Below, one piece after another: positions 19,246 to 38,769 of a stretch of DNA of 64,000 nucleotides (the first letter of the stretch is position 1; every line of letters begins with the position of its first letter). Position numbers and translations under genes: made by a program. Where the stretch lies: assembly GCA_000165345.1 (NCBI GenBank), contig CM000433.1, positions 256,001 through 320,000 of the forward strand, in the 5' to 3' direction. The notes beneath the pieces are model-generated. The model did no database searches. It saw only the letters and a program-made list of their open reading frames with translations, and was not told the DNA's origin.

Positions 19246-22065
19246 TCACTCATTAGATTGAGAACTATTTTTATCATTGTTTAATGAGGGCGGTGAAGAA
19301 TAACCAAATTTGACGGAGTCGGAAGTATCTTCGTTAGGAACAAACTTAGAGAATAAAGGCGCAACTTCCGTACCATTTAAGGGGGATAAAGCGAATTTGC
19401 CTTGAGAAGTGCCATTTGTGAGTATTAAGCTTGAACTAATGTATCTTTCATTATTTAAATTTGTAGTTTGATTCATTGTGTTTGAGCTTCCAGGCGCTCT
19501 ATCAAGCTGATCGGATTTATCTTTTATATAATTAGGATTAGATTCAGTTGAATTTAATGAATTGATATTGGTTCCATTGTATTGTGATTGACTTGAGTTC
19601 GAGACATTATTTATAACGTTAGCTGGTGTAGTTGTAGTTGTAGTGTACTTTTTGAAAATGTGTTGATTTTGTAATAAGTCTGTTTGCTTTTCTGACCTTT
19701 TATCTGTTGCATTATTAGATTGATTGATTCTATTTTTTGCATCAGAGTTGTTATCGTAAGTTTTATTCGTTTCCTTAGTCGCTTCAGGAGAAGTAGTATT
19801 TAATAACTTTTTTTGGGCTGGAATAATTAAATTTGAGTCATCATTTAACTGGGTGTTAGTAGGCTGTAATCTATTATTATTTTGAGATAAAAGCATTAAA
19901 GTATTTGAAAGCGAGCTGTTAATGCTAGCTGTGGTGGCGGTTGTTGTTGTAGTGGTAGTGGTAGTAGTTGTGGTAGTAGTTGTGGTAGTAGTTGTGGTAG
20001 TAGTTGTGGTAGTGGTAGTAGTAGTAGTAGTTGTTGTTGTTGTAGACGTTGTATAATATGGCTTAAAGAATTCCTTTTTTGGTAGGAAAGAAATATTGTT
20101 TAGATCTATTTGGTTAAAAAGAGATGATTTACTAGCTTTTTGAGAACTGTTTGTATTCTCTCTGAGCCTCCTATTCACAGATGCAATTTTGCCAACATTG
20201 GAAGCGTTCAAAAATAGGTTTGCTTCAGTAGTAGTAGTGGTTGTTGTGGTAGTAGTAGTTGTGGTAGTAGTAGTTGTTGTGGTAGTAGTAGTAGTAGTAG
20301 TTGTTGTTGTTGTTGTCGTAGTTGTAGTTGTTGTGGTAGTAGTTGTTGTGGTAGTAGTAGTTGTTGTGGTAGTTGTAGTAGTTGTGGTAGTTGTAGTAGT
20401 TGTGGTAGTAGTAGTTGTTGTGTAATATGGCTTAAAGAATTCCTTTTTTGGTAGGAAAGGAATATTGTTTAGATCCATTGGATTTATAAATGTTGATTTT
20501 ACAGTTTCTTGTGGGCTATTAGGACTNNNTNNNTANNNTNNNNNTTNTNNGANGCANTAGNANNANNNNNNGATANNNNNANNNNTNNNNNNAGNATNNN
20601 CNNNNNGNNGNNNTNGNNNNNGNNNNNGTANTNNNTNGNTNNNTNNNTAGNGGTGAANNGAGNANTGGTANTNGTGGTAGTAGNTGTNNTTGNGGNACGG
20701 TTGTAGNANTTNTNGTGGTGAGNNGTNNNANNTNNANNAGTAGNNNNGGTAGTANNNNNNNTTGNANNGTNTNGNANTANTAANGTTNNGNTANNGAANT
20801 ANNANTAGNTNTNNTAGTNNTAGTAGTAGTAGTAGTTGTTGTTGTTGTTGTGGTANTAGTAGGTAGTTGNTGNNGTTGTGGNAGTAGTAGTTGTNGTGGT
20901 GGTAGNAGTTGTTGNTGTTGTGGTAGTTGTAGTAGTTGTTGTGGTAGNTGTAGTAGTTGTGGTAGTAGTTGTAGTAGTAGTTGTAGTTGTGTAATATGGC
21001 TTAAATGGGATTCAAAAATTTTTCTTTCATTTGGAAAAATGGATTGTTTAAATCTATNGGAAGAAAAAAGTTTGGTTTTGCAATTTCCTGCGATGAATTT
21101 GAATTGATTTGTGAAACTTCATTGCTTGCTGTGATACCTAAACTTGGCGAGTTCAAAGCTAGACTTTCTGCAGTGGTAGTAGTTGTGGTAGTTGTTGTTG
21201 TTGTGGTGGTAGTAGTTGTGGTAGTGGTAGTTGTTGTTGTTGTGGTAGTGGTAGTNGTNGTTGTTGTGGTAGTGGTAGTTGTAGTAGTTGTTGTTGTGGT
21301 AGTAGTAGTAGTTGTTGTNGTNGTNGTTGTTGTGGTAGTGTAGTGGNTAGTTGTTGTAGTGTGGTGGGTAGTTGTGNTGGTAGTAGTAGTTGTGGTAGTG
21401 GTAGTAGTAGTTGTGGTAGTGGTAGTAGTAGTTGTAGTTGTTGTTGTGGTGGTAGTAGTAGTAGTTGTTGTTGTTGTCGTGGTTGTGGTAGTTGTAGTTG
21501 TTGTTGTGGTGGTAGTAGTAGTTGTAGTAGTTGTAGTTGTGGTTGTGGTAGTTGTAGTTGTTGTGGTAGTTGTTGTGGTAGTTGTAGTTGTAGTTGTTGT
21601 TGTGGTTGTGGTAGTAGTAGTTGTTGTGGTTGTGGTGGTAGTTGTTGTTGTGGTAGTTGTTGTCACTGGTCTAAATGGTCTAAAGAATTGTTCTTTCATT
21701 TGGAAAAATGGATGGCTTAAATCCATTGGATTAAAGAACGACGAGGACTTCACAGTCGAATCGTTTCCCAGTAACACTTTAGAACTATCCAAATTAGTGC
21801 TATTTGTATACTCAGTAGATAAAGGCATTCCGGGCAAATCGATGCCACCTATGCCAGTTAATATACCTTCAGAAGCATTTTTACTGTTTGTTACGTAGGA
21901 TTCATCTATATTACTTGGTGTGATTTGATTACCTCCTAACTCACTATTCCATGCCTCTGATTTATTTTCAGAGTATGTGATGGTATTAACTTCACATAAA
22001 GCATACTTTGAAAATTGAAGCAGAAGAAAGAAAAATAAAGTCGAAAAAACCTGTAGAAAATTCAT
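19246..22065 (-). CDS. Mucin-like secreted glycoprotein with modular poly-Thr arrays. It is probably one long gene that the assembly breaks with N's and an apparent frameshift near 21001, leaving track ORFs 21001..22065 and 19246..20478.
   Basis: Signal peptide at the 22065 end (MNFLQVFSTLFFFLLLQFSKYALC). It contains at least four modules of Ser/Asn-rich linker, a conserved motif (NPMDL / DLNN-I-PF(L/F)-KKEFFKPYY, seen 4 times), then 40-170 consecutive Thr from (ACT/ACC/ACA)n. The frame stays open from 20478 upstream into the N region, so the M of MDLNN is internal (F I N P M D L N N). The stop at 21001 sits where KEFFKPYY reads KFLNPI*, a 1-nt frame slip relative to the other copies. Confidence 0.6.
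19930..21665 (-). repeat. (ACN)n trinucleotide coding minisatellite encoding poly-Thr. Blocks at about 19930-20052, 20225-20421, 20527-20990 (N-rich) and 21172-21665.
   Basis: The plus strand reads (GTA/GTG/GTT)n, which is why the track shows spurious poly-Val and Cys/Gly/Ser ORFs. There is 3-nt periodicity with higher-order GGTAGT/AGTTGT units. Ambiguous bases occur at 20527..21377. Confidence 0.85.
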
Positions 22066-30485: not shown

Positions 30486-33287
30486 TTACCAGAGTATTCC
30501 TCCAAATATATCTGCCTTTGATAAAAGCGATAGATTGTAGCATGCCATTTTTTTAAGTTTGATAAAATCATAGCTTCGAACATCAGTGATAGAGCTTAGG
30601 GAATTTATACATTTTATGTAACAGTTTATTGCGTTTGTTTTCAAATTAATTTGATGGAATGCGCGTGCGAGATTATAGAGGCATTCTGCCTTATAAATTT
30701 CATCATTAATATAAATACTCTGCCTTCCTTTTGAATATCTCATAATAAATGAAAACCCTTTTATTATTGCAAAAATCCGATTCTTGGATTCTTTGCTTGT
30801 TGCTACTCCTACCAACGAAACCCCAAGACAAAGAGAAATAAGATCATCGAAAGGAATTAATCTGTGGATTTTTAAGTATTCGGATGAAGCTTGGTTTAGA
30901 CGGTTGGAAAAAACGTAAAGATGGGCAGTAATAATTTGAAGCTCTAGATTATCTCTCGAATTTAAAATCTGTCTTTGTATCCACGATCTTGTTTCACCAA
31001 TAGTTTCTTTTTCGAGAATGAAATGGTTATTTAATTTATTTAATTTTGATGCAAATAAATTTGGCATTAAAATTAGGCTGCCTAACACTTTGCAAACACT
31101 TTTCTTATTGGATTTCTTGTTGAATTCTTCTCTCAAAAGTCCGAGTAATACACGCCAGATACCACCTTCAAATGAAAATGTAAGTAGTAGTTTTTGCAAT
31201 GAGTGTTTTCCTCTATTTAGTGAATCTCCGTTCATTTCAGGGCATAAGAACTTAAGGTTGTTAAGAAGCTTTTCAAATAATTCTACAGCAATGCTATTTT
31301 TTTTTGAATATTTTAAAAAAATTGCACCTAGCGATAGAAAATGCCAAAATTCATTTTCAGAGGCTAAAATACCTTCTAATGTAATTAAACCAAGCTCATT
31401 CCTAACTTTTGCCAATTGGATATTTGCTCTTTGCAGCCTTTTACTTGTATTTAATGTAGATGTTTCATTTGAATTTTTAGAATAGTTAGAAGTACTAGAT
31501 ATATCCTTTTCAATGCATTCTAAACTATTTTTTTTATTATTTTCATTATATTTCCTTGAATATATCAATTGGTTTATACGCTTTATGTCAATTATAAATT
31601 CATTAATTACATTGGCAAATCGATCTGCAAATAAATAAATAGAAATGTTATCAGGTTCAAAGTATATATTTGTGGTAATTGCAGTCTCCAAATATGGTTG
31701 AACTTCAATATTATTTGTAGTTTTTGCGATTTCTTTTTTCATGTCAGAAAATAAATCAAGAACGATTGTTATTCTCATTTCTTGCGGAATTGGAATTGAT
31801 ATATCTTTAGACTGTATTATTTCATCGTATTTCATTGTGTAGATCAACTCTTCGCTTAGACTATCGTAACCCATTTTCGAATATATGGAGGCTAAAAGCG
31901 TTTTCGCTCTGGAAATATTAAAATCACCAGAAACATCTTTATTTTTCTCCAATAATTTTTTAAGTACTGATGCAGCATCTTCATTTAAATTGAGTTTATG
32001 AAGCGAATAAGCATATTTAATATTAAAAGGAACATTAGATTCGAATGATTTTGAATTATATACAGTTACAAAATGGATATTTGCATTTTCATATTTACCA
32101 ATTTGAAAATATGCATCTCCTAATGTCAAATGTAAATCAATAAAATCTTCTAAGCTGTTATATTCATTTATAATTTTAGAAACTTGGAGTGCGGGAATGT
32201 AATTTCCAAAATTAAGATTTGCCACTGCATATTTGGTTGCAATATCAATTGGAACGTTTTTCAAAAATTGATTATCAATTATTTCATTAGTATTATGTTG
32301 AGTTAGTTGATTAAATATCGAATTAAAATCATTTGATTGAGTATTCATTTTTCCAAAATAATTATGAATTAGATCAACACACTTCTGGTATAATTTCAAA
32401 TCAATATAAACTTCGCATAACATATTAACGATATTTATGTCATCACAATACTCTATACAGCTTTCAAGAATTTCCGCTGCTAAGCTCAACTTTCCAATTT
32501 TATGATAGCATCTAGCAAGCTCTTTCCCCAAGAGTGGGTCGCCAGGGTGCCTCCAAAATAATATTTTTAGCTGTTGTATACACCTATTAATATCATTTAC
32601 TGAATAATATGCACTACTAAGTTCAAACCGTATTTCATCTTCTAATTGTGCAGCCGATTCTTGCCCACCTAAATTCTCAGAGTATTCTATGTTTTTAATA
32701 CATTTAGAGTAACAGTATATTGCTCTGTTCCAATCTTGAATTTCAGCACTCATTTGTCCTATTCTTCTCCATAAAAAAAAATCGGTGCTTACTAGGTGAG
32801 CAGCAACTAAGTAAAATCCAATTGCCTTTTCTTTATCATCTAGTTCTTGTTCATATATAAGACCCAGCATATGGAAAGGGTCATGTAATCCTGGAGCTTT
32901 GACAACGATTTCTTCGAGTATTTCGATTGCTAAGATGAATTTTTTTTCTAAATAAGCATCATTAGCTCGTTGCAACAATTTCTCGATTTCAGTTGAAACA
33001 TTTTGTTGTGACTTAGTTTTTTTTCGATGGCTTAAGTCTCTTCTTCTTTTCCTTTCATTTGAATATTTCGAAGTGCTAAATTCAAGTGAAAGCATGTTCT
33101 CAGAATCAGATTCGTCTTCCGAAAAATTATCAAAAAATTGGCTTAAAATATTTGAACTTTGACCATTTTTAAGCCCAGAATCACCAAATTTTAATAATTC
33201 ACCCATGTATGGCAGCTCTAATATATTTTGTTCATCATCGCCAATTTCATTGCTAAGTGAAGATGTAGTTGGATGAATTGTATTCAT
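30486..33287 (-). CDS. TFC4: TFIIIC TPR-repeat subunit (Tfc4 / GTF3C3-like).
   Basis: Acidic N-terminus followed by TPR repeats. PFHMLGLIYEQELDDKEKAIGFYLVAAHLVSTDFFLWRRIGQMSAEIQDWNRAIYCYSKCIK matches the conserved first TPR block of Tfc4/GTF3C3 (PYHTLGLIYEE.GD.EKAL.FYLLAAHL.P.D..LW.RLA.LS...G....AIYCYSRA). Confidence 0.65.
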   Translation of the reverse strand: MNTIHPTTSSLSNEIGDDEQNILELPYMGELLKFGDSGLKNGQSSNILSQFFDNFSEDESDSENMLSLEFSTSKYSNERKRRRDLSHRKKTKSQQNVSTEIEKLLQRANDAYLEKKFILAIEILEEIVVKAPGLHDPFHMLGLIYEQELDDKEKAIGFYLVAAHLVSTDFFLWRRIGQMSAEIQDWNRAIYCYSKCIKNIEYSENLGGQESAAQLEDEIRFELSSAYYSVNDINRCIQQLKILFWRHPGDPLLGKELARCYHKIGKLSLAAEILESCIEYCDDINIVNMLCEVYIDLKLYQKCVDLIHNYFGKMNTQSNDFNSIFNQLTQHNTNEIIDNQFLKNVPIDIATKYAVANLNFGNYIPALQVSKIINEYNSLEDFIDLHLTLGDAYFQIGKYENANIHFVTVYNSKSFESNVPFNIKYAYSLHKLNLNEDAASVLKKLLEKNKDVSGDFNISRAKTLLASIYSKMGYDSLSEELIYTMKYDEIIQSKDISIPIPQEMRITIVLDLFSDMKKEIAKTTNNIEVQPYLETAITTNIYFEPDNISIYLFADRFANVINEFIIDIKRINQLIYSRKYNENNKKNSLECIEKDISSTSNYSKNSNETSTLNTSKRLQRANIQLAKVRNELGLITLEGILASENEFWHFLSLGAIFLKYSKKNSIAVELFEKLLNNLKFLCPEMNGDSLNRGKHSLQKLLLTFSFEGGIWRVLLGLLREEFNKKSNKKSVCKVLGSLILMPNLFASKLNKLNNHFILEKETIGETRSWIQRQILNSRDNLELQIITAHLYVFSNRLNQASSEYLKIHRLIPFDDLISLCLGVSLVGVATSKESKNRIFAIIKGFSFIMRYSKGRQSIYINDEIYKAECLYNLARAFHQINLKTNAINCYIKCINSLSSITDVRSYDFIKLKKMACYNLSLLSKADIFGGILW

Positions 33288-33440: not shown

Positions 33441-36360
33441 TCATTCATTAAAATATTTTGTTTTCAATACTTCTGCGCAAGACCAGTTGAAGTCTAATTT
33501 TGTATCTTGGAATTGCTTGCACTTATTGGAAAGACTGATAGTACTTAAGTCATTTTCGAATGGTCCCAACTGATTAATTTTTTCAATGTAAAATAGGGAT
33601 CTCTTAAAATCCTTGTTAATGAAAAATATCAATGCTTTAGTATGAAATTTAGATTTTAAAAGCGAAATCGGATCGGAATCATTTACAGTATTCAATACAT
33701 GATAAATTACTGTAGGGTTGCTTTTCCCTTGCACAACAACAACATCCAATGGGCATATTACAAACCTTTTCTGCACTTCTTTATTTACGAAGACATTGTT
33801 ACTTATTATTATGTCTGCAGAATAACGCCTAGTTAAAGATTCGATTCTACTGGCCAAATTAACTCCATCACCCATAATTCCGTACTTCATTCTTTTACTG
33901 CATCCAATGTTCCCAATCAGGACGTGATCTGTATGAATTCCACACTTAATGTTAATTTCTGGAATGTAGTTATTTCCGAAAGATCTAGATTTTAATTTTA
34001 ATTGCTTTTTCATTTTTAAAGACGCAGCTACCGCAGCTGCTGAATGGTTTTTAACAGCCATAGGTGAATTCCAAATTACTAGGATTGCATCTCCAGCAAT
34101 TTCTAGTAGGTTACCATGAAATTCTTCGATTATTTTAACCATTTCATCAAAATAATTAGTTAATAAGTAAAACAGTAATAATGGGTCAATCCTTTCTGCA
34201 ATACCAGTAAAACCAACAATATCTGAAAATAGAATTGTTATTTCCTTATACTGAGGACTAAGTGTTGAAAAGTCAAACTTCCTTAAGAGTGACGCTGCGA
34301 CACCTTGCGGAAGATATTTAGAGAGCGAATCCACATATTTTTTCAGAGATTCTGCGCAATGATTGGATAAAAACTCTGATAAATAGTCATTCATTGATAA
34401 ATTAATCTGAGAATTATCTTCATTAGAAAAAGACAAATTCTTTTCAGCTAACTTCAAATTACCATAAATCAAATCATACTTGTTTATTATTCGATTGTAA
34501 CTTTTCAATGATGAAGAAAAATACATCTGATCTACTTTAAGATGAAATATTGAACTTAAAAAAATAATCAGAAAATAAAAGTATTTCTGAATTATAGATG
34601 CAGTACAGTTGGCTTGAGAATATTTGTTGCCATAACTATTAATGATCGTCTCTATAGTAGAAATGAAAGTTACTGCTGCGAAAATAAATAATGTAATGTT
34701 GTAAAACGATTGTTCAAAAATAATTTTTCTATTCAAAAGTAAGCAAGACCCATTAGTAATGTCAAATAAATTGGTGTGGCAATCAATTCTATTCAATAGC
34801 TTTTTTTTGCAGTCCAAAGAAACTAATAACATCTCAAAATCTTCATAAGTTAGTTTTTTCTTGTTTGAAATGTATTCCTGATAACTTGAGATGCCAGTTT
34901 TCCTGTAAAAGCATATAAAACCATTAAATTCCTTACTGAACAGCCTCGGCAACCTGCGATCATTAAACTTCAGAGAAATAAAGAAAGATTTAAGAATAGC
35001 GAGTATCTGTGACTTACAAAATAAACAAAGTTTAAGGTAAACTAGTTTAAAATGTGAATAAAATTGATTATAAATTAGCATGAAACGTTGATTATTATTT
35101 GAATTTTTTGTAAATTTTCGTTCCTTTAAAGATAAAGTGGGAATATTGTATTCTAACCCGAAGAATTTATTTTGAATCCAATCAAAATTTTGAAACAAAA
35201 TATGTATACAATGATTGGTTAACCAGATTGCTTTGATCAAAAATATCGATTCCTAACTTTGTACAAATACTTTCGAATTCGGAAGATGAAATCATTGAAC
35301 TTATATCATTGCTAATAGAATAAAAAATTTGCTTGAGCTGAGTCCTGATAATTTCCGTAACTTGGAATTTATTATACTTGTTAGTAAATTTGCACTGAAG
35401 AATGAAAATAATACGATAAATATATGAATAATATAAAAGTTGAGCATAAATATTAAAAAATTCTTTAATTAGGCCCTCACTGCCATAAAAGTATAGAGTT
35501 GTTAAAATCAAATGGATCATTTCTATAGCCATGCCCATTTTTGGTATAGATTTCCAATTAAAAATATAGAAAAATATATCGAAGCAAATATTAATTACAG
35601 ACAAAGCAATAATTATAATCTCTGAGAGATGATTAATGGATATATATTTGCTTCTCAATATATTTATGTTCATAATGCGTATAACTTGAATTGCTAACTC
35701 TATTAATGATTTGCTACAAATTTTATAATATTCATTCAAAAACTTTAACAGGATAATTGAAACTTTATTATTTTCATGATTTGAAAATAACTGGACACCT
35801 TTTTTTAAACCAAAAAAATTATTAATGTCGTGAATAATATACTTATCAATATTTTTAATCTCAATACCAGGTGATGAATGATCTTGCCTCAAAGTATTAA
35901 GATTTTTTATATGTTGAAAATTTAAATCAGAAAGTTGTAACCGATTAACATGATTAATTAGTAAGTCAAATAACGGTAAGATACAGTTTCTGTGCGTTTT
36001 TATATTAATTACTCGACGCAGACGCCTTTGTTCCTTTACCAAATGCTGATTTTCATTTATGTATATTAATTCCAAAAAATCAAAATCTTGATAGGTCGAT
36101 AAAGATTTAGTGCTATTCAATATATTTTTAAAAGAGCATAAAAAATTGATTTCCTTTCTAAACGAGAGTTTTTTCAAATTAGTATTACATTTTTTTAAGT
36201 AATTTTCTTTCCGATTGGGACTTTGTGTAAACGCAAAAAAGTCTAATTTCGTCCCGGTTCTAATTATAGTTTCAACATTATTGCCCAATAAATTGGTGAA
36301 AGTTGAGTTTAAATTATTGGAATAAAATTTAATTCTATAATTACTATGGTTAATCTGCAT
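33441..36360 (-). CDS. Membrane-anchored class III nucleotidyl (adenylyl/guanylyl) cyclase: N-terminal multi-pass TM region plus C-terminal cyclase catalytic domain. Tentative model complement(join(33441..35230,35271..36360)).
   Basis: Cyclase motifs: ITILFSDIVGFTG (metal Asp), AGDAILVIW (second Asp) and GDGVNLASRIESLT (Asn/Arg transition-state pair). Upstream ORF 35182..36360 encodes TM helices (IIIALSVINICFDIFFYIFNW; MGMAIEMIHLILTTLYFYG). The downstream ORF has no ATG and opens immediately after a TAG. A 40-nt candidate intron (GTATTT...AAAG, 35231..35270) joins ...SSSEFE|T|IWLTNHCIHILF in frame; the alternative is a frameshift. Confidence 0.6.
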
Positions 36361-36453: not shown

Positions 36454-37269
36454 TTAAAGTTCTTCTCTAGCTGTTGAGATTACATCATTTTCGAAGCTGT
36501 CGGTATTATTAAGAACGTTTGATGTCTTTGTTCCATTAGATATGCTTGAATTTGCTGTCAAATTTTCATGTTTTTCCTTCATTTCCCACCAAACGTGCAT
36601 ATTTGGAATTTTTAGTTTTTGGTCCTTCAATAATCTTGGCCAAATAGTATTAGGCTCCTTCTTAACTAGAGTGCAGGATAGCTTTCCAACAGATCCAAAT
36701 GACCATTCAGATAAATCTGAATCAATATTATCGAATAGCTCGAGTTTAAGAACATATTTTTTTTTTTCGTGTGAATGCGATCCCATTGCAGAAAAAAAAA
36801 ATATATTATCACGAATTGAGACAGTTTCATTTTCTATTTTCAATGCACCCGGAGCATTCCATCTGTAAGTAAACTTTATGTTCAGATATACTTGATCAGA
36901 TGATTGTGCCCATTGAAATGCAGGGGATAATGTTGCAATCTCACTGTGTTTTTTGTTTAATAATCTAGTTAGTTCATTTAACTCTCTTCTAATTGAGAGT
37001 TCCACAGAACGAACAACTGGACTTAAATCAATACCCTGCTCATGCGTTTTAATAATTAATTTCCTTGAGAGTATCCACCAACCTCTCGAAATTGAAGTAT
37101 TTAAATCATCTGCAATTATATTTCTTGTTAATTTTTCAAATATCTGTATTGCATCTGCTTCAGTTTGAGAACTAGCAAAGATAGATGTGTTATTATGCCC
37201 TAGCTGTTCACAGAAAGTAAAGCTACCTAGGAATACAATTAGAAACAAAGAGAAAAAGTAAGTTAGCAT
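36454..37269 (-). CDS. Secreted or ER-resident protein with a p23/CS-like (HSP20-fold) domain and a C-terminal REEL.
   Basis: The real ATG is at 37269 (the track start is TTG). Signal peptide MLTYFFSLFLIVFLGSFTFC. The CS-like core is AFQWAQSSDQVYLNIKF...YVLKLELFDNIDSDLSEWSFGSVGKLSCTLVKKEPNTIWPRL. The last four residues REEL resemble a K/HDEL-type ER retrieval signal. Confidence 0.5.
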   Translation of the reverse strand: MLTYFFSLFLIVFLGSFTFCEQLGHNNTSIFASSQTEADAIQIFEKLTRNIIADDLNTSISRGWWILSRKLIIKTHEQGIDLSPVVRSVELSIRRELNELTRLLNKKHSEIATLSPAFQWAQSSDQVYLNIKFTYRWNAPGALKIENETVSIRDNIFFFSAMGSHSHEKKKYVLKLELFDNIDSDLSEWSFGSVGKLSCTLVKKEPNTIWPRLLKDQKLKIPNMHVWWEMKEKHENLTANSSISNGTKTSNVLNNTDSFENDVISTAREEL

Positions 37270-37466
37270 ATTTTTCAATATTCTGAAGAAATTCCAATAT
37301 TACCGCAATTTTATCATCAAGCCTAAATTTCATTTAAAAACAAATTAATAAATTAATATCCAATATGGAATTAAATTAACGATATTTTTGTACTTAAGCT
37401 AACCAATTAATCTTATTTTATTCTTATGAAATTTTTATATACTGAGTGCGGATAAACTTTTATTAA

Positions 37467-38769
37467 ATGAATAAAGTTCTGGTAGTAGATAATGGCTCAT
37501 ACACCATTAAAATTGGATATTCAGGTGAAGAATTACCTAGGTAAGTTGAATTTCTTACCAAAAATATTTTAATTCTCTTAGGCATTGCTTCCCAAATTGT
37601 ATCGGAAAAGTTCGAAGAAAAGATAAAATTTATACATCTGATCAAATTTACAGCTTGAATGAATATTTTTCTTATTGTCCATTTTCTGAAGGCTTACTAA
37701 TTGATGTTTCAATGGAAAATGATATTTGGGAATATATTTTTAATAAAATGAATATTTCTCCAGGGGATATTGGTTTATTAGTCACTGAACCATTTCTAAA
37801 CCCATCCTCACTTCAGCATTCTCTTTTCGAAATAATCTTTGAGCAATTTGGTTTTAATAAGGCAATAGTTACAAATCCTCCTGCAATATCACAGTTTGCA
37901 TTCAATCCACAGCTAATTCCCAATACTGAGCAGCAAGTAATTAATCCTTGCTATTTGATTTTAGACTGTGGCTATCAGTGTTGTTTTAGTGTCCCATTTT
38001 TTCAAGGCTCACCAATTTATAAAGCTTGTAGAAGATTGGATATTGGCGGATATCACTTGGATCTTGCATTAAAAAATTTTCTTTCACTCAGACAAGTTGA
38101 TTTATCTAGAAGCTCTTTAATTGTCTCAAAAATTAAAGAAAGTTGCTGCTATATTTCTAAAAATTTTGATCTTGATATTAGCAGGTCGCCAGGAAATAGT
38201 CCTGATAATTTGGTGGAGCAGATATATCAACTCCCTGAATTAAAACCAAACAGTAAGAATTCAAACTTCTACTCTCAGGAGTGTATATCTCCAGATAATA
38301 TTGAACTTGAGAATTTCAATTTAAAAATGGAATCCGAATCTAGCGTGAATTGCGACCCTAGCAGAATCATTAAACTTTATTCTGAAAGGATTACTGTTCC
38401 GGAACTTTTATTTAGTCCTTCAAACGGAGGTTATAACTTTACAGGAATTGCCGACATGGTATCAGAGTCAATCTTATCATCCCCAAAGCATCTCCAAGAG
38501 CTTCTAGCGAATAATATATTGTTAATAGGAGGCTCTACTAAATTCAGAAATTTCGAAGCGAGATTAAATAAGGAGCTTTCCTCTCTACTACCTTCGGTAA
38601 GTTTAAAACTTAAACACTATCATTCAACTAACTTAAGAAGTCGTGGAAAATAAAAACAAGAAAATGCAATCAAAGACCTGACTTCACAACATGGGCAGGT
38701 GGCTCAATTTGGGGAGAAACAAACTTTGATACATATGCACTTTCAAAAAGTAAATACAATGAAATCTGA
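37467..38769 (+). CDS. Actin-related protein (Arp), three exons: join(37467..37540,37582..38596,38638..38769); two 41-nt introns, both GTAAGT...(T/A)AG.
   Basis: Exon 1 (MNKVLVVDNGSYTIKIGYSGEELPR) matches the actin N-terminus ([22 protein letters not shown]). Exon 2 has LLVTEPFLNPSSLQHSLFEIIFEQFGFNKAIV, ITVPELLFSPS and LLIGGSTKFRNFEARLNKEL. Exon 3, joined in frame by a 41-nt intron, gives the actin-fold C-terminus ...PDFTTWAGGSIWGETNFDTYALSKSKYNEI*. The subfamily (Arp4/6 or actin-like) is not resolved. Confidence 0.75.

Follow-up and report, generated by a model that had tools for sequence, protein, structure and literature searches.

The 64,000-nucleotide (nt) stretch of Cryptosporidium parvum DNA considered here (GenBank assembly GCA_000165345.1, contig CM000433.1, positions 256,001 to 320,000 of the forward strand), hereafter the window, carries at 33441..36360 of its minus strand a gene that is broken into two reading frames in this assembly. 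The evidence taken as a whole is best explained, with high confidence, by a single intron-less C. parvum gene coding for a membrane-anchored class III nucleotidyl cyclase of 972 residues. The break in the frame is an artefact of the 2004 assembly or its consensus and not a biological feature, or at most a change peculiar to the DNA that was sequenced at that time. Newer annotations of C. parvum, C. hominis and C. tyzzeri already contain the gene with its correct 972-amino-acid (aa) model, and neither splicing nor recoding plays a part in its expression. A first-pass annotation, made from the letters of the window alone, had proposed that a polytopic membrane module and a class III cyclase at this locus are the two halves of one gene, which is borne out by the identical 972-aa proteins of the newer assemblies. 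All parts of the gene described below lie on the minus strand.

The open reading frame (ORF) list of the window shows two long ORFs at this locus, 36360..35182, which starts with ATG and codes for 392 aa, and 35240..33441, which codes for 599 aa when counted from its first TTG. The frame of the latter is open from a TAG at 35255..35253, as the first-pass annotation had described. Its statement that this frame has no ATG was mistaken, however: the first ATG lies at 35081 and yields a 546-aa product equal to a public model, EAK88117.1. By exact-sequence look-up, the 392-aa ORF was identified as EAK88118.1/XP_626079.1, a “hypothetical protein” of C. parvum Iowa II, and its downstream partner as EAK88117.1/XP_626078.1, a 546-aa [quoted passage not shown] The window thus belongs to the 2004 assembly of Iowa II. 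The “2 transmembrane regions” in the name of the 33441..35081 model are a by-product of the split: the 546-aa model retains only the hairpin formed by the fifth and sixth transmembrane helices (TM5 and TM6), while the intact protein has about six membrane helices. The whole gene measures 2920 nt, including the stop codon at 33441..33443, and becomes a single ORF of 2919 nt and 972 aa, corresponding to CPATCC_0023100, once one T is removed. Judging from the chromosome, the window gene is presumably cgd5_1290 together with the adjacent upstream split model.

The break can be traced to one base. At 35197..35200 the coding strand has a homopolymer run, TTTT, that is one base too long by comparison with every other assembly and that disrupts the frame between Tyr387 and Leu388; the extra T sits in the minus-strand context ACATA-TTTT-G, i.e., in a run of A on the plus strand. 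When one T is taken out, the 972-aa translation is residue-for-residue that of QOY41564.1 (CPATCC_0023100), WKS77783.1, WRK32275.1 and KAL5368559.1 from newer C. parvum assemblies, the first three of which are named “membrane associated adenyl cyclase.” Over 8.9 kb (8920 nt) around the gene, the window aligns with CP044418.1, the IOWA-ATCC assembly, and with CP029784.1, a complete C. parvum assembly, without any mismatch and with a single gap, the extra T. A third locus, from a read-set assembly, shows two mismatches. When the 2920-nt gene of the window was aligned at the DNA level with four C. hominis loci, identity was 97.5% and there was exactly one gap, again the extra T. The surplus base is the only difference from the 972-aa model, which it divides, in the assembly of the window, into EAK88118.1 (392 aa) and EAK88117.1 (546 aa).

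The same gene is found intact across the genus. In C. hominis it forms one uninterrupted 2919-bp ORF flanked by the same neighbors, and a protein search recovered orthologues from seven Cryptosporidium species that are full-length, with 955-978 aa, and without exception unbroken across the junction. Species with an orthologue are C. hominis, C. tyzzeri, C. ubiquitum, C. canis and C. felis, among others. In a set of nine orthologues of 917-978 aa, all are single ORFs that run continuously over the junction. The window and the loci of the 972-aa cyclase share a common gene order, namely an actin-like gene, a CS-domain protein, the cyclase, a TFIIIC-like TPR protein and Sec62.

The C-terminal half contains a complete class III cyclase domain. 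The Pfam family Guanylate_cyc (PF00211) matches it over profile positions 4-177 of 183 with an E-value of 8.3e-24 and 84.6 bits, for a cut-off of 21.9, so that the HMMER-type check suggested by the first-pass annotation confirms its assignment to the class III cyclases. The motifs that it had singled out, FSDIVGFT, GDAILVIW, GVNLASRIE and TTLYFYGSEG, are all present in the sequence. Pfam, alignment with structures of the PDB and tabulation of the hits delimit the catalytic domain to residues 702-883 (33711..34256). The closest solved structures are those of CyaB from Pseudomonas aeruginosa (3r5g; E 5.4e-28), a homodimeric bacterial class IIIb enzyme, and of Cya2 from Synechocystis (2w01; E 9.4e-24). 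The putative metal-binding residues Asp713 (34221..34223, in FSDIVGFT) and Asp757 (34089..34091, in GDAIL), as well as the putative transition-state residues Asn834 (33858..33860) and Arg838 (33846..33848), both in GVNLASR, align with their equivalents in both structures, and all four belong to one domain. Since the metal, transition-state and substrate residues are all found in this single domain, the protein is proposed to pair head to tail as a homodimer in which both active sites are equivalent, as in bacterial class III cyclases. A fusion of the P4-ATPase-guanylyl cyclase kind, in which a P-type ATPase is joined to two cyclase domains, is excluded, as Pfam detects a single PF00211 match and no ATPase family.

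The residues at the two substrate-selecting positions do not agree with the name given to the protein. They are Glu753 (34101..34103, in LLE-IAGDA) and Gly827 (33879..33881, in KY-G-IMGDGVNLASR), and not Lys/Asp or Lys/Thr. In the HMMER alignment to 2w01, Glu753 falls on Glu488 of Cya2 and Gly827 on the Gly of its pair. According to a tabulation of all hits, each of the nine Cryptosporidium orthologues has the E...G combination, as do their closest eukaryotic relatives, whereas bacterial hits of the adenylyl cyclase type have K...T. The ATP-specific signature of class III enzymes, Lys with Asp (or with Thr in class IIIb), is thus absent from the nine orthologues, in which Glu753/Gly827 is invariant, and the signature found is that of Cya2-type guanylyl cyclases, in which Glu takes the place of the Lys and a small or non-acidic residue, Gly in Cya2, that of the Asp. 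An inspection of these positions for Lys/Asp as opposed to Glu/Cys had been recommended by the first-pass annotation, and the Glu/Gly pair that it brought to light is of the guanylyl cyclase type. The pair of Cya2 is also E-G, and at the position where adenylyl cyclases have their Lys, a Glu is found in guanylyl cyclases (PMC4215837). The substitution E488K alone turns Cya2 from a guanylyl into an adenylyl cyclase (PMC5995499). On the strength of the Glu753/Gly827 pair, as in Cya2, GTP or dual specificity therefore appears more likely than the annotated ATP specificity.

Cya2 of Synechocystis PCC 6803 (PDB 2W01) is a homodimeric guanylyl cyclase with a homologous catalytic domain, the same Glu/Gly pair, all catalytic residues in one domain and a membrane anchor, and in these respects resembles the C. 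parvum protein. In contrast, it combines a CHASE2 sensor with a simple anchor and has a Tyr in VNLTYR, while the C. parvum protein, whose activity is predicted from sequence, has a module of four plus two helices, an EF-hand-like loop, a conserved C-terminal tail and a Ser in place of the Tyr. CyaB (PDB 3R5G), the best-scoring solved relative, carries Lys and Thr at the substrate positions where the C. parvum protein has Glu and Gly.

A competing reading, which we regard as credible and yet the less probable option, is that the protein is an ordinary adenylyl cyclase as annotated and that the Glu/Gly pair does not determine its substrate. Several points speak for it and weigh against a guanylyl or dual enzyme. 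The public names read “adenyl cyclase,” and in a review, three adenylyl cyclases are listed for C. parvum, cgd5_1290, which is presumably the window gene, cgd2_1270 and cgd4_3100, next to one guanylyl cyclase, cgd3_1110 (PMC10865986). Cya2 binds ATP and GTP with equal affinity, and mutations of specificity residues in other cyclases often reduce activity without switching the substrate (PMC4215837). The Tyr that enhances the activity of Cya2 (VNLTYR) is replaced by Ser here (VNLASR). Finally, two residues cannot fix substrate preference with certainty. On the other hand, Lys has given way to Glu in each of the nine orthologues and likewise in the nearest eukaryotic relatives. Guanylyl cyclases have such a Glu as their hallmark, and E488K by itself is enough to convert Cya2. 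The sole paper found that contains the identifier cgd5_1290 is the same review, and no biochemical data on the protein were found.

Where the catalytic half comes from was addressed by a search with the catalytic domain and the C-terminal tail as the query. A first search had suggested a bacterial origin of the cyclase, an idea that was overturned by the closer eukaryotic relatives obtained when the search was restricted to the domain. These relatives form a tier with 36-45% identity, 54-99% query coverage (97-99% in 7 of 11) and E-values from 7e-60 to 4e-39. One of them comes from the transcriptome of an apicomplexan, Rhytidocystis sp. (GHVS01; EukProt GHVS01108892; PMC10304595). Another lies on a 32.6-kb environmental contig which can be taken as eukaryotic DNA because ubiquitin, CH and Notch-type genes are found beside it. 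The cyclases of uncultured eukaryotes and Rhytidocystis (P0046-P0056) have in common with the C. parvum protein the signatures EFIGDA / KYGV[LM]GDGVNLASR and a terminal W.G.EVL..K.F motif. Their N-termini, where present, contain one or two membrane helices and a HAMP-like linker, and not the Cryptosporidium module. Some bacterial receiver-domain cyclases (P0063-P0070) also have EFIGDA / KYGVVG. By sequence kinship, the catalytic unit belongs to an uncharacterised group of eukaryotic E/G cyclases and is not a recent bacterial acquisition. The conserved, predicted helical C-terminal tail, residues 886-972 (33444..33704), ends with NWSCAEVLKTKYFNE and includes the W.G.EVL..K.F motif common to these relatives; no Pfam family matches it, and a TPR nature was not confirmed.

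Hydropathy and alignment indicate that the protein begins with some 210 soluble residues and continues with four membrane helices, a loop of about 230 residues, a two-helix hairpin and a long helix, which leads into the catalytic domain and then the helical tail. The N-terminal soluble region, residues 1-210 (35731..36360), matches no known domain and harbors the genus-conserved motifs GNNVE..IR.G, ILPLFD.L and IDKYIIHDINNFFG. Membrane cluster A, TM1-TM4 (35395..35721), is made of four consecutive predicted helices at residues 214-236 (approximate, and weak), 245-267, 273-293 and 303-322; cluster B is the TM5-TM6 hairpin, residues 552-574 and 587-607 (34539..34706), with a variable connecting loop of about 12 residues. 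Residues 440-463 were considered as a further conserved membrane helix and rejected, as the stretch is deleted in C. felis and in the distant orthologue P0044. The true architecture is predicted to be a genus-restricted module of 4 + 2 helices, where the old annotation had “2 TM.” If the cyclase faces the cytosol, so would the N-terminus and the long loop.

That the N-terminal half might resemble a channel, as the first-pass annotation had put forward, held for its polytopic membrane character and failed for homology, searches of Pfam, of the PDB and of protein representatives all being negative. No Pfam family, Ion_trans included, matched the N-terminal half or the 680-residue module of seven orthologues above noise. 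A profile of the module gave no hit among PDB sequences at E ≤ 10, and among 1.84 billion representative proteins it retrieved Cryptosporidium-type proteins only. Structure prediction was of little help because of the shallow alignment: the AlphaFold2 model of the full-length protein from seven orthologues reached a mean predicted local distance difference test (pLDDT) score of 32.7, with even the cyclase domain unfolded, and that of residues 196-692 from eight sequences a mean of 46.7, with 55-74 for the TM1-TM4 region alone. A Foldseek search of the PDB with the module model returned nothing significant (best E 0.43). In this low-confidence model, TM1-TM4 resemble the S1-S4 bundle of channels, a hint that may serve as a lead and is not evidence of a channel.

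It is nonetheless conceivable, if unlikely, that the module is a divergent ion channel and the protein a relative of the K+-channel/adenylyl cyclase fusions (ACalpha) of alveolates. These fusions, Paramecium AC, Plasmodium ACalpha and Toxoplasma ACalpha1-3, likewise have a polytopic N-terminal module, a single class III domain and a C-terminal extension, and come from alveolates. The membrane modules, however, appeared unrelated in the profile search, in which they were not compared pairwise with ACalpha, and the C. parvum protein differs from the fusions by lacking an S4-type charge pattern and a pore or GXG element. Thus, TM4 (LLYYSYIYRIIFILQCKF) has one Arg, which is not kept in C. felis, and the TM5-TM6 loop, with its 12 or so variable residues, is too short for a pore helix and a filter. 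The first-pass annotation had found no canonical K+ selectivity filter, in agreement with the missing pore loop; the TTLYFYGSEG sequence that it mentioned corresponds to residues 287-296, which reach from the end of TM3 into the TM3-TM4 loop, and its GSEG is replaced in orthologues by CDSKN, CHITN or YDHSY and is therefore not conserved. Moreover, the homologue of these fusions that Prole and Marrion reported for C. parvum is a different protein, XP_626352 (PMC3283738). Their screen could not see the full architecture of the window gene, because the reference models are split.

The long loop between TM4 and TM5 contains an EF-hand-like helix-loop-helix, which should be taken as a lead only. 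Its loop covers residues 350-363, SNDISSMISSSEFE (35272..35313), and is presumably cytosolic. In C. felis the Ca2+ ligands follow the canonical D-x-D-x-D...E pattern (DDDMDSMISTQE), which has degenerated in the C. parvum loop (SNDISSMISSSE). Of seven module members, only two are matched by EF-hand families of Pfam, with E-values of 0.12-1.4, and hhalign places the motif in register with EF-hand 1 of calmodulin at a P-value of 0.007 and a probability of 5.6%. A second conserved motif of helix-loop-helix appearance, LTYEDFEML (residues 503-511; 34827..34853), was noticed on reading the alignment; because its loop is Lys-rich, it is not, by its composition, a plausible Ca2+ site.

In the mechanism proposed, the genus-restricted membrane module would anchor the dimer and regulate the cyclase, possibly by means of a Ca2+ input, and would not conduct ions. 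The dimeric state is deduced from the family and the membrane topology from the expected location of the cyclase; both structure models had low confidence.

As regards the frame break, we consider it very improbable that the Iowa II line used for sequencing truly carries the extra T as a mutation. The gene of that line would then be a pseudogene or would give two polypeptides, with the cyclase half starting from the Met at 35081. The window does reproduce the GenBank Iowa II models exactly, and an in-frame ATG is available at 35081. In addition, the artefact is called from assembled sequences, and a mutation private to the DNA of the 2004 project keeps a small probability. In contrast, this base is all that separates the window, over the 8.9 kb compared, from the IOWA-ATCC assembly (CP044418.1) and from a second complete assembly of C. 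parvum, and the intact protein is encoded on 24 contigs examined. Both halves of the gene are under purifying selection, with a ratio of nonsynonymous to synonymous substitutions (dN/dS) between C. parvum and C. hominis of 0.17-0.48 in each part. Other signs of a draft consensus exist in the same window. Older Cryptosporidium references contain indels and frameshifts that split genes (PMC8744675). Programmed frameshifting was dropped as an explanation, the extra base being simply missing from every other isolate.

The first-pass annotation had left the choice between a 40-nt intron and a frameshift to join the two halves. The frameshift stands in the form of one extra T, albeit as an assembly artefact, and the intron does not. 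The candidate segment, 35270..35231 on the minus strand, starts with GT and ends with AG, and its removal would join both frames; a spliced model of 959 aa was built, then rejected on the evidence of the orthologues and of the other assemblies. The segment is in fact conserved coding sequence, which encodes SICTKLGIDIFDQSNLVNQSLYTY (approximately residues 364-377, SICTKLGIDIFDQS) without a break in all orthologues; SICTKLGIDIFDQS and the NLVNQSLYTY that follows it are both kept across the genus, including in the distant 917-aa orthologue P0044. A real spliceosomal intron has virtually no chance of being correct and is refuted by these comparisons, as the segment specifies 13 residues conserved in all orthologues, which are 13 residues longer than the 959-aa spliced product, the ORF runs uninterrupted across it in the other C. 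parvum and C. hominis assemblies, splicing would also remove part of the EF-hand-like helix, and the frame problem is fully accounted for by the extra T that lies 31 nt further downstream.

The genes around the cyclase are as follows. Upstream, at 36454..37278 (minus strand), is a gene with a marginal CS-domain match (E 5e-4; 21.4 bits for a cut-off of 21.3). It appears in the window as a 274-aa, TTG-started ORF with no exact match in the protein collection, and as a 271-aa product in other assemblies; the gap between it and the start of the cyclase is about 90 nt. Further on, at 37655..38653 (plus strand), lies an actin-family ORF of 332 aa counted from a TTG. Gene calls for this actin-family gene vary, with 313, 381, 405 and 409 aa across C. 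parvum, C. hominis and related loci, which suggests an intron or an uncertain start. Downstream of the cyclase, at 30486..33287 (minus strand), is EAK88116.1, a 933-aa TPR protein annotated as a Tfc4p-like TFIIIC subunit, whose synteny is kept in C. hominis and in the species of P0002.

Elsewhere in the window, a mucin-like gene region occupies 19246..22065 (minus strand). Its poly-Thr tracts are very long, appear as arrays of GTT/GTA triplets on the plus strand and produce a spike of GC skew at 20-22 kb. This region contains 159 scattered N at 20527..21377 and a frame break that gives two ORFs, 19246..20478 and 21001..22065, and its actual gene structure probably differs from the one listed. 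The 159 N within the poly-Thr repeat are a mark of a draft-quality consensus.

As a finding on gene structure, the present one has no significance, since a correct model exists and the split is an error of the 2004 assembly. Its practical consequence is that the Iowa II models offer their users a truncated “2-TM” cyclase and an orphan “hypothetical protein,” which hide the real architecture, and the split may have kept the gene out of surveys of cyclases with membrane modules. The main residue of the analysis is a prediction, namely that a protein named “adenylyl cyclase” has substrate residues of the guanylyl cyclase type throughout the genus.

Signaling by cyclic GMP (cGMP) and PKG drives motility and egress in apicomplexans, and Cryptosporidium is generally credited with one guanylyl cyclase. 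A tentative and rather doubtful extension of the prediction is that the “adenylyl cyclase” is a Cya2-like guanylyl or dual cyclase, a second source of cGMP independent of the P4-ATPase-guanylyl cyclase, placed under a genus-specific membrane sensor of S1-S4-like and EF-hand-derived type, and that its six-helix architecture was hidden for years by a split gene in the reference assembly. If this sequence-based prediction is true, a second enzyme of the guanylyl cyclase type would alter the reading of cyclic-nucleotide experiments and of drug work directed at PKG and PDE.

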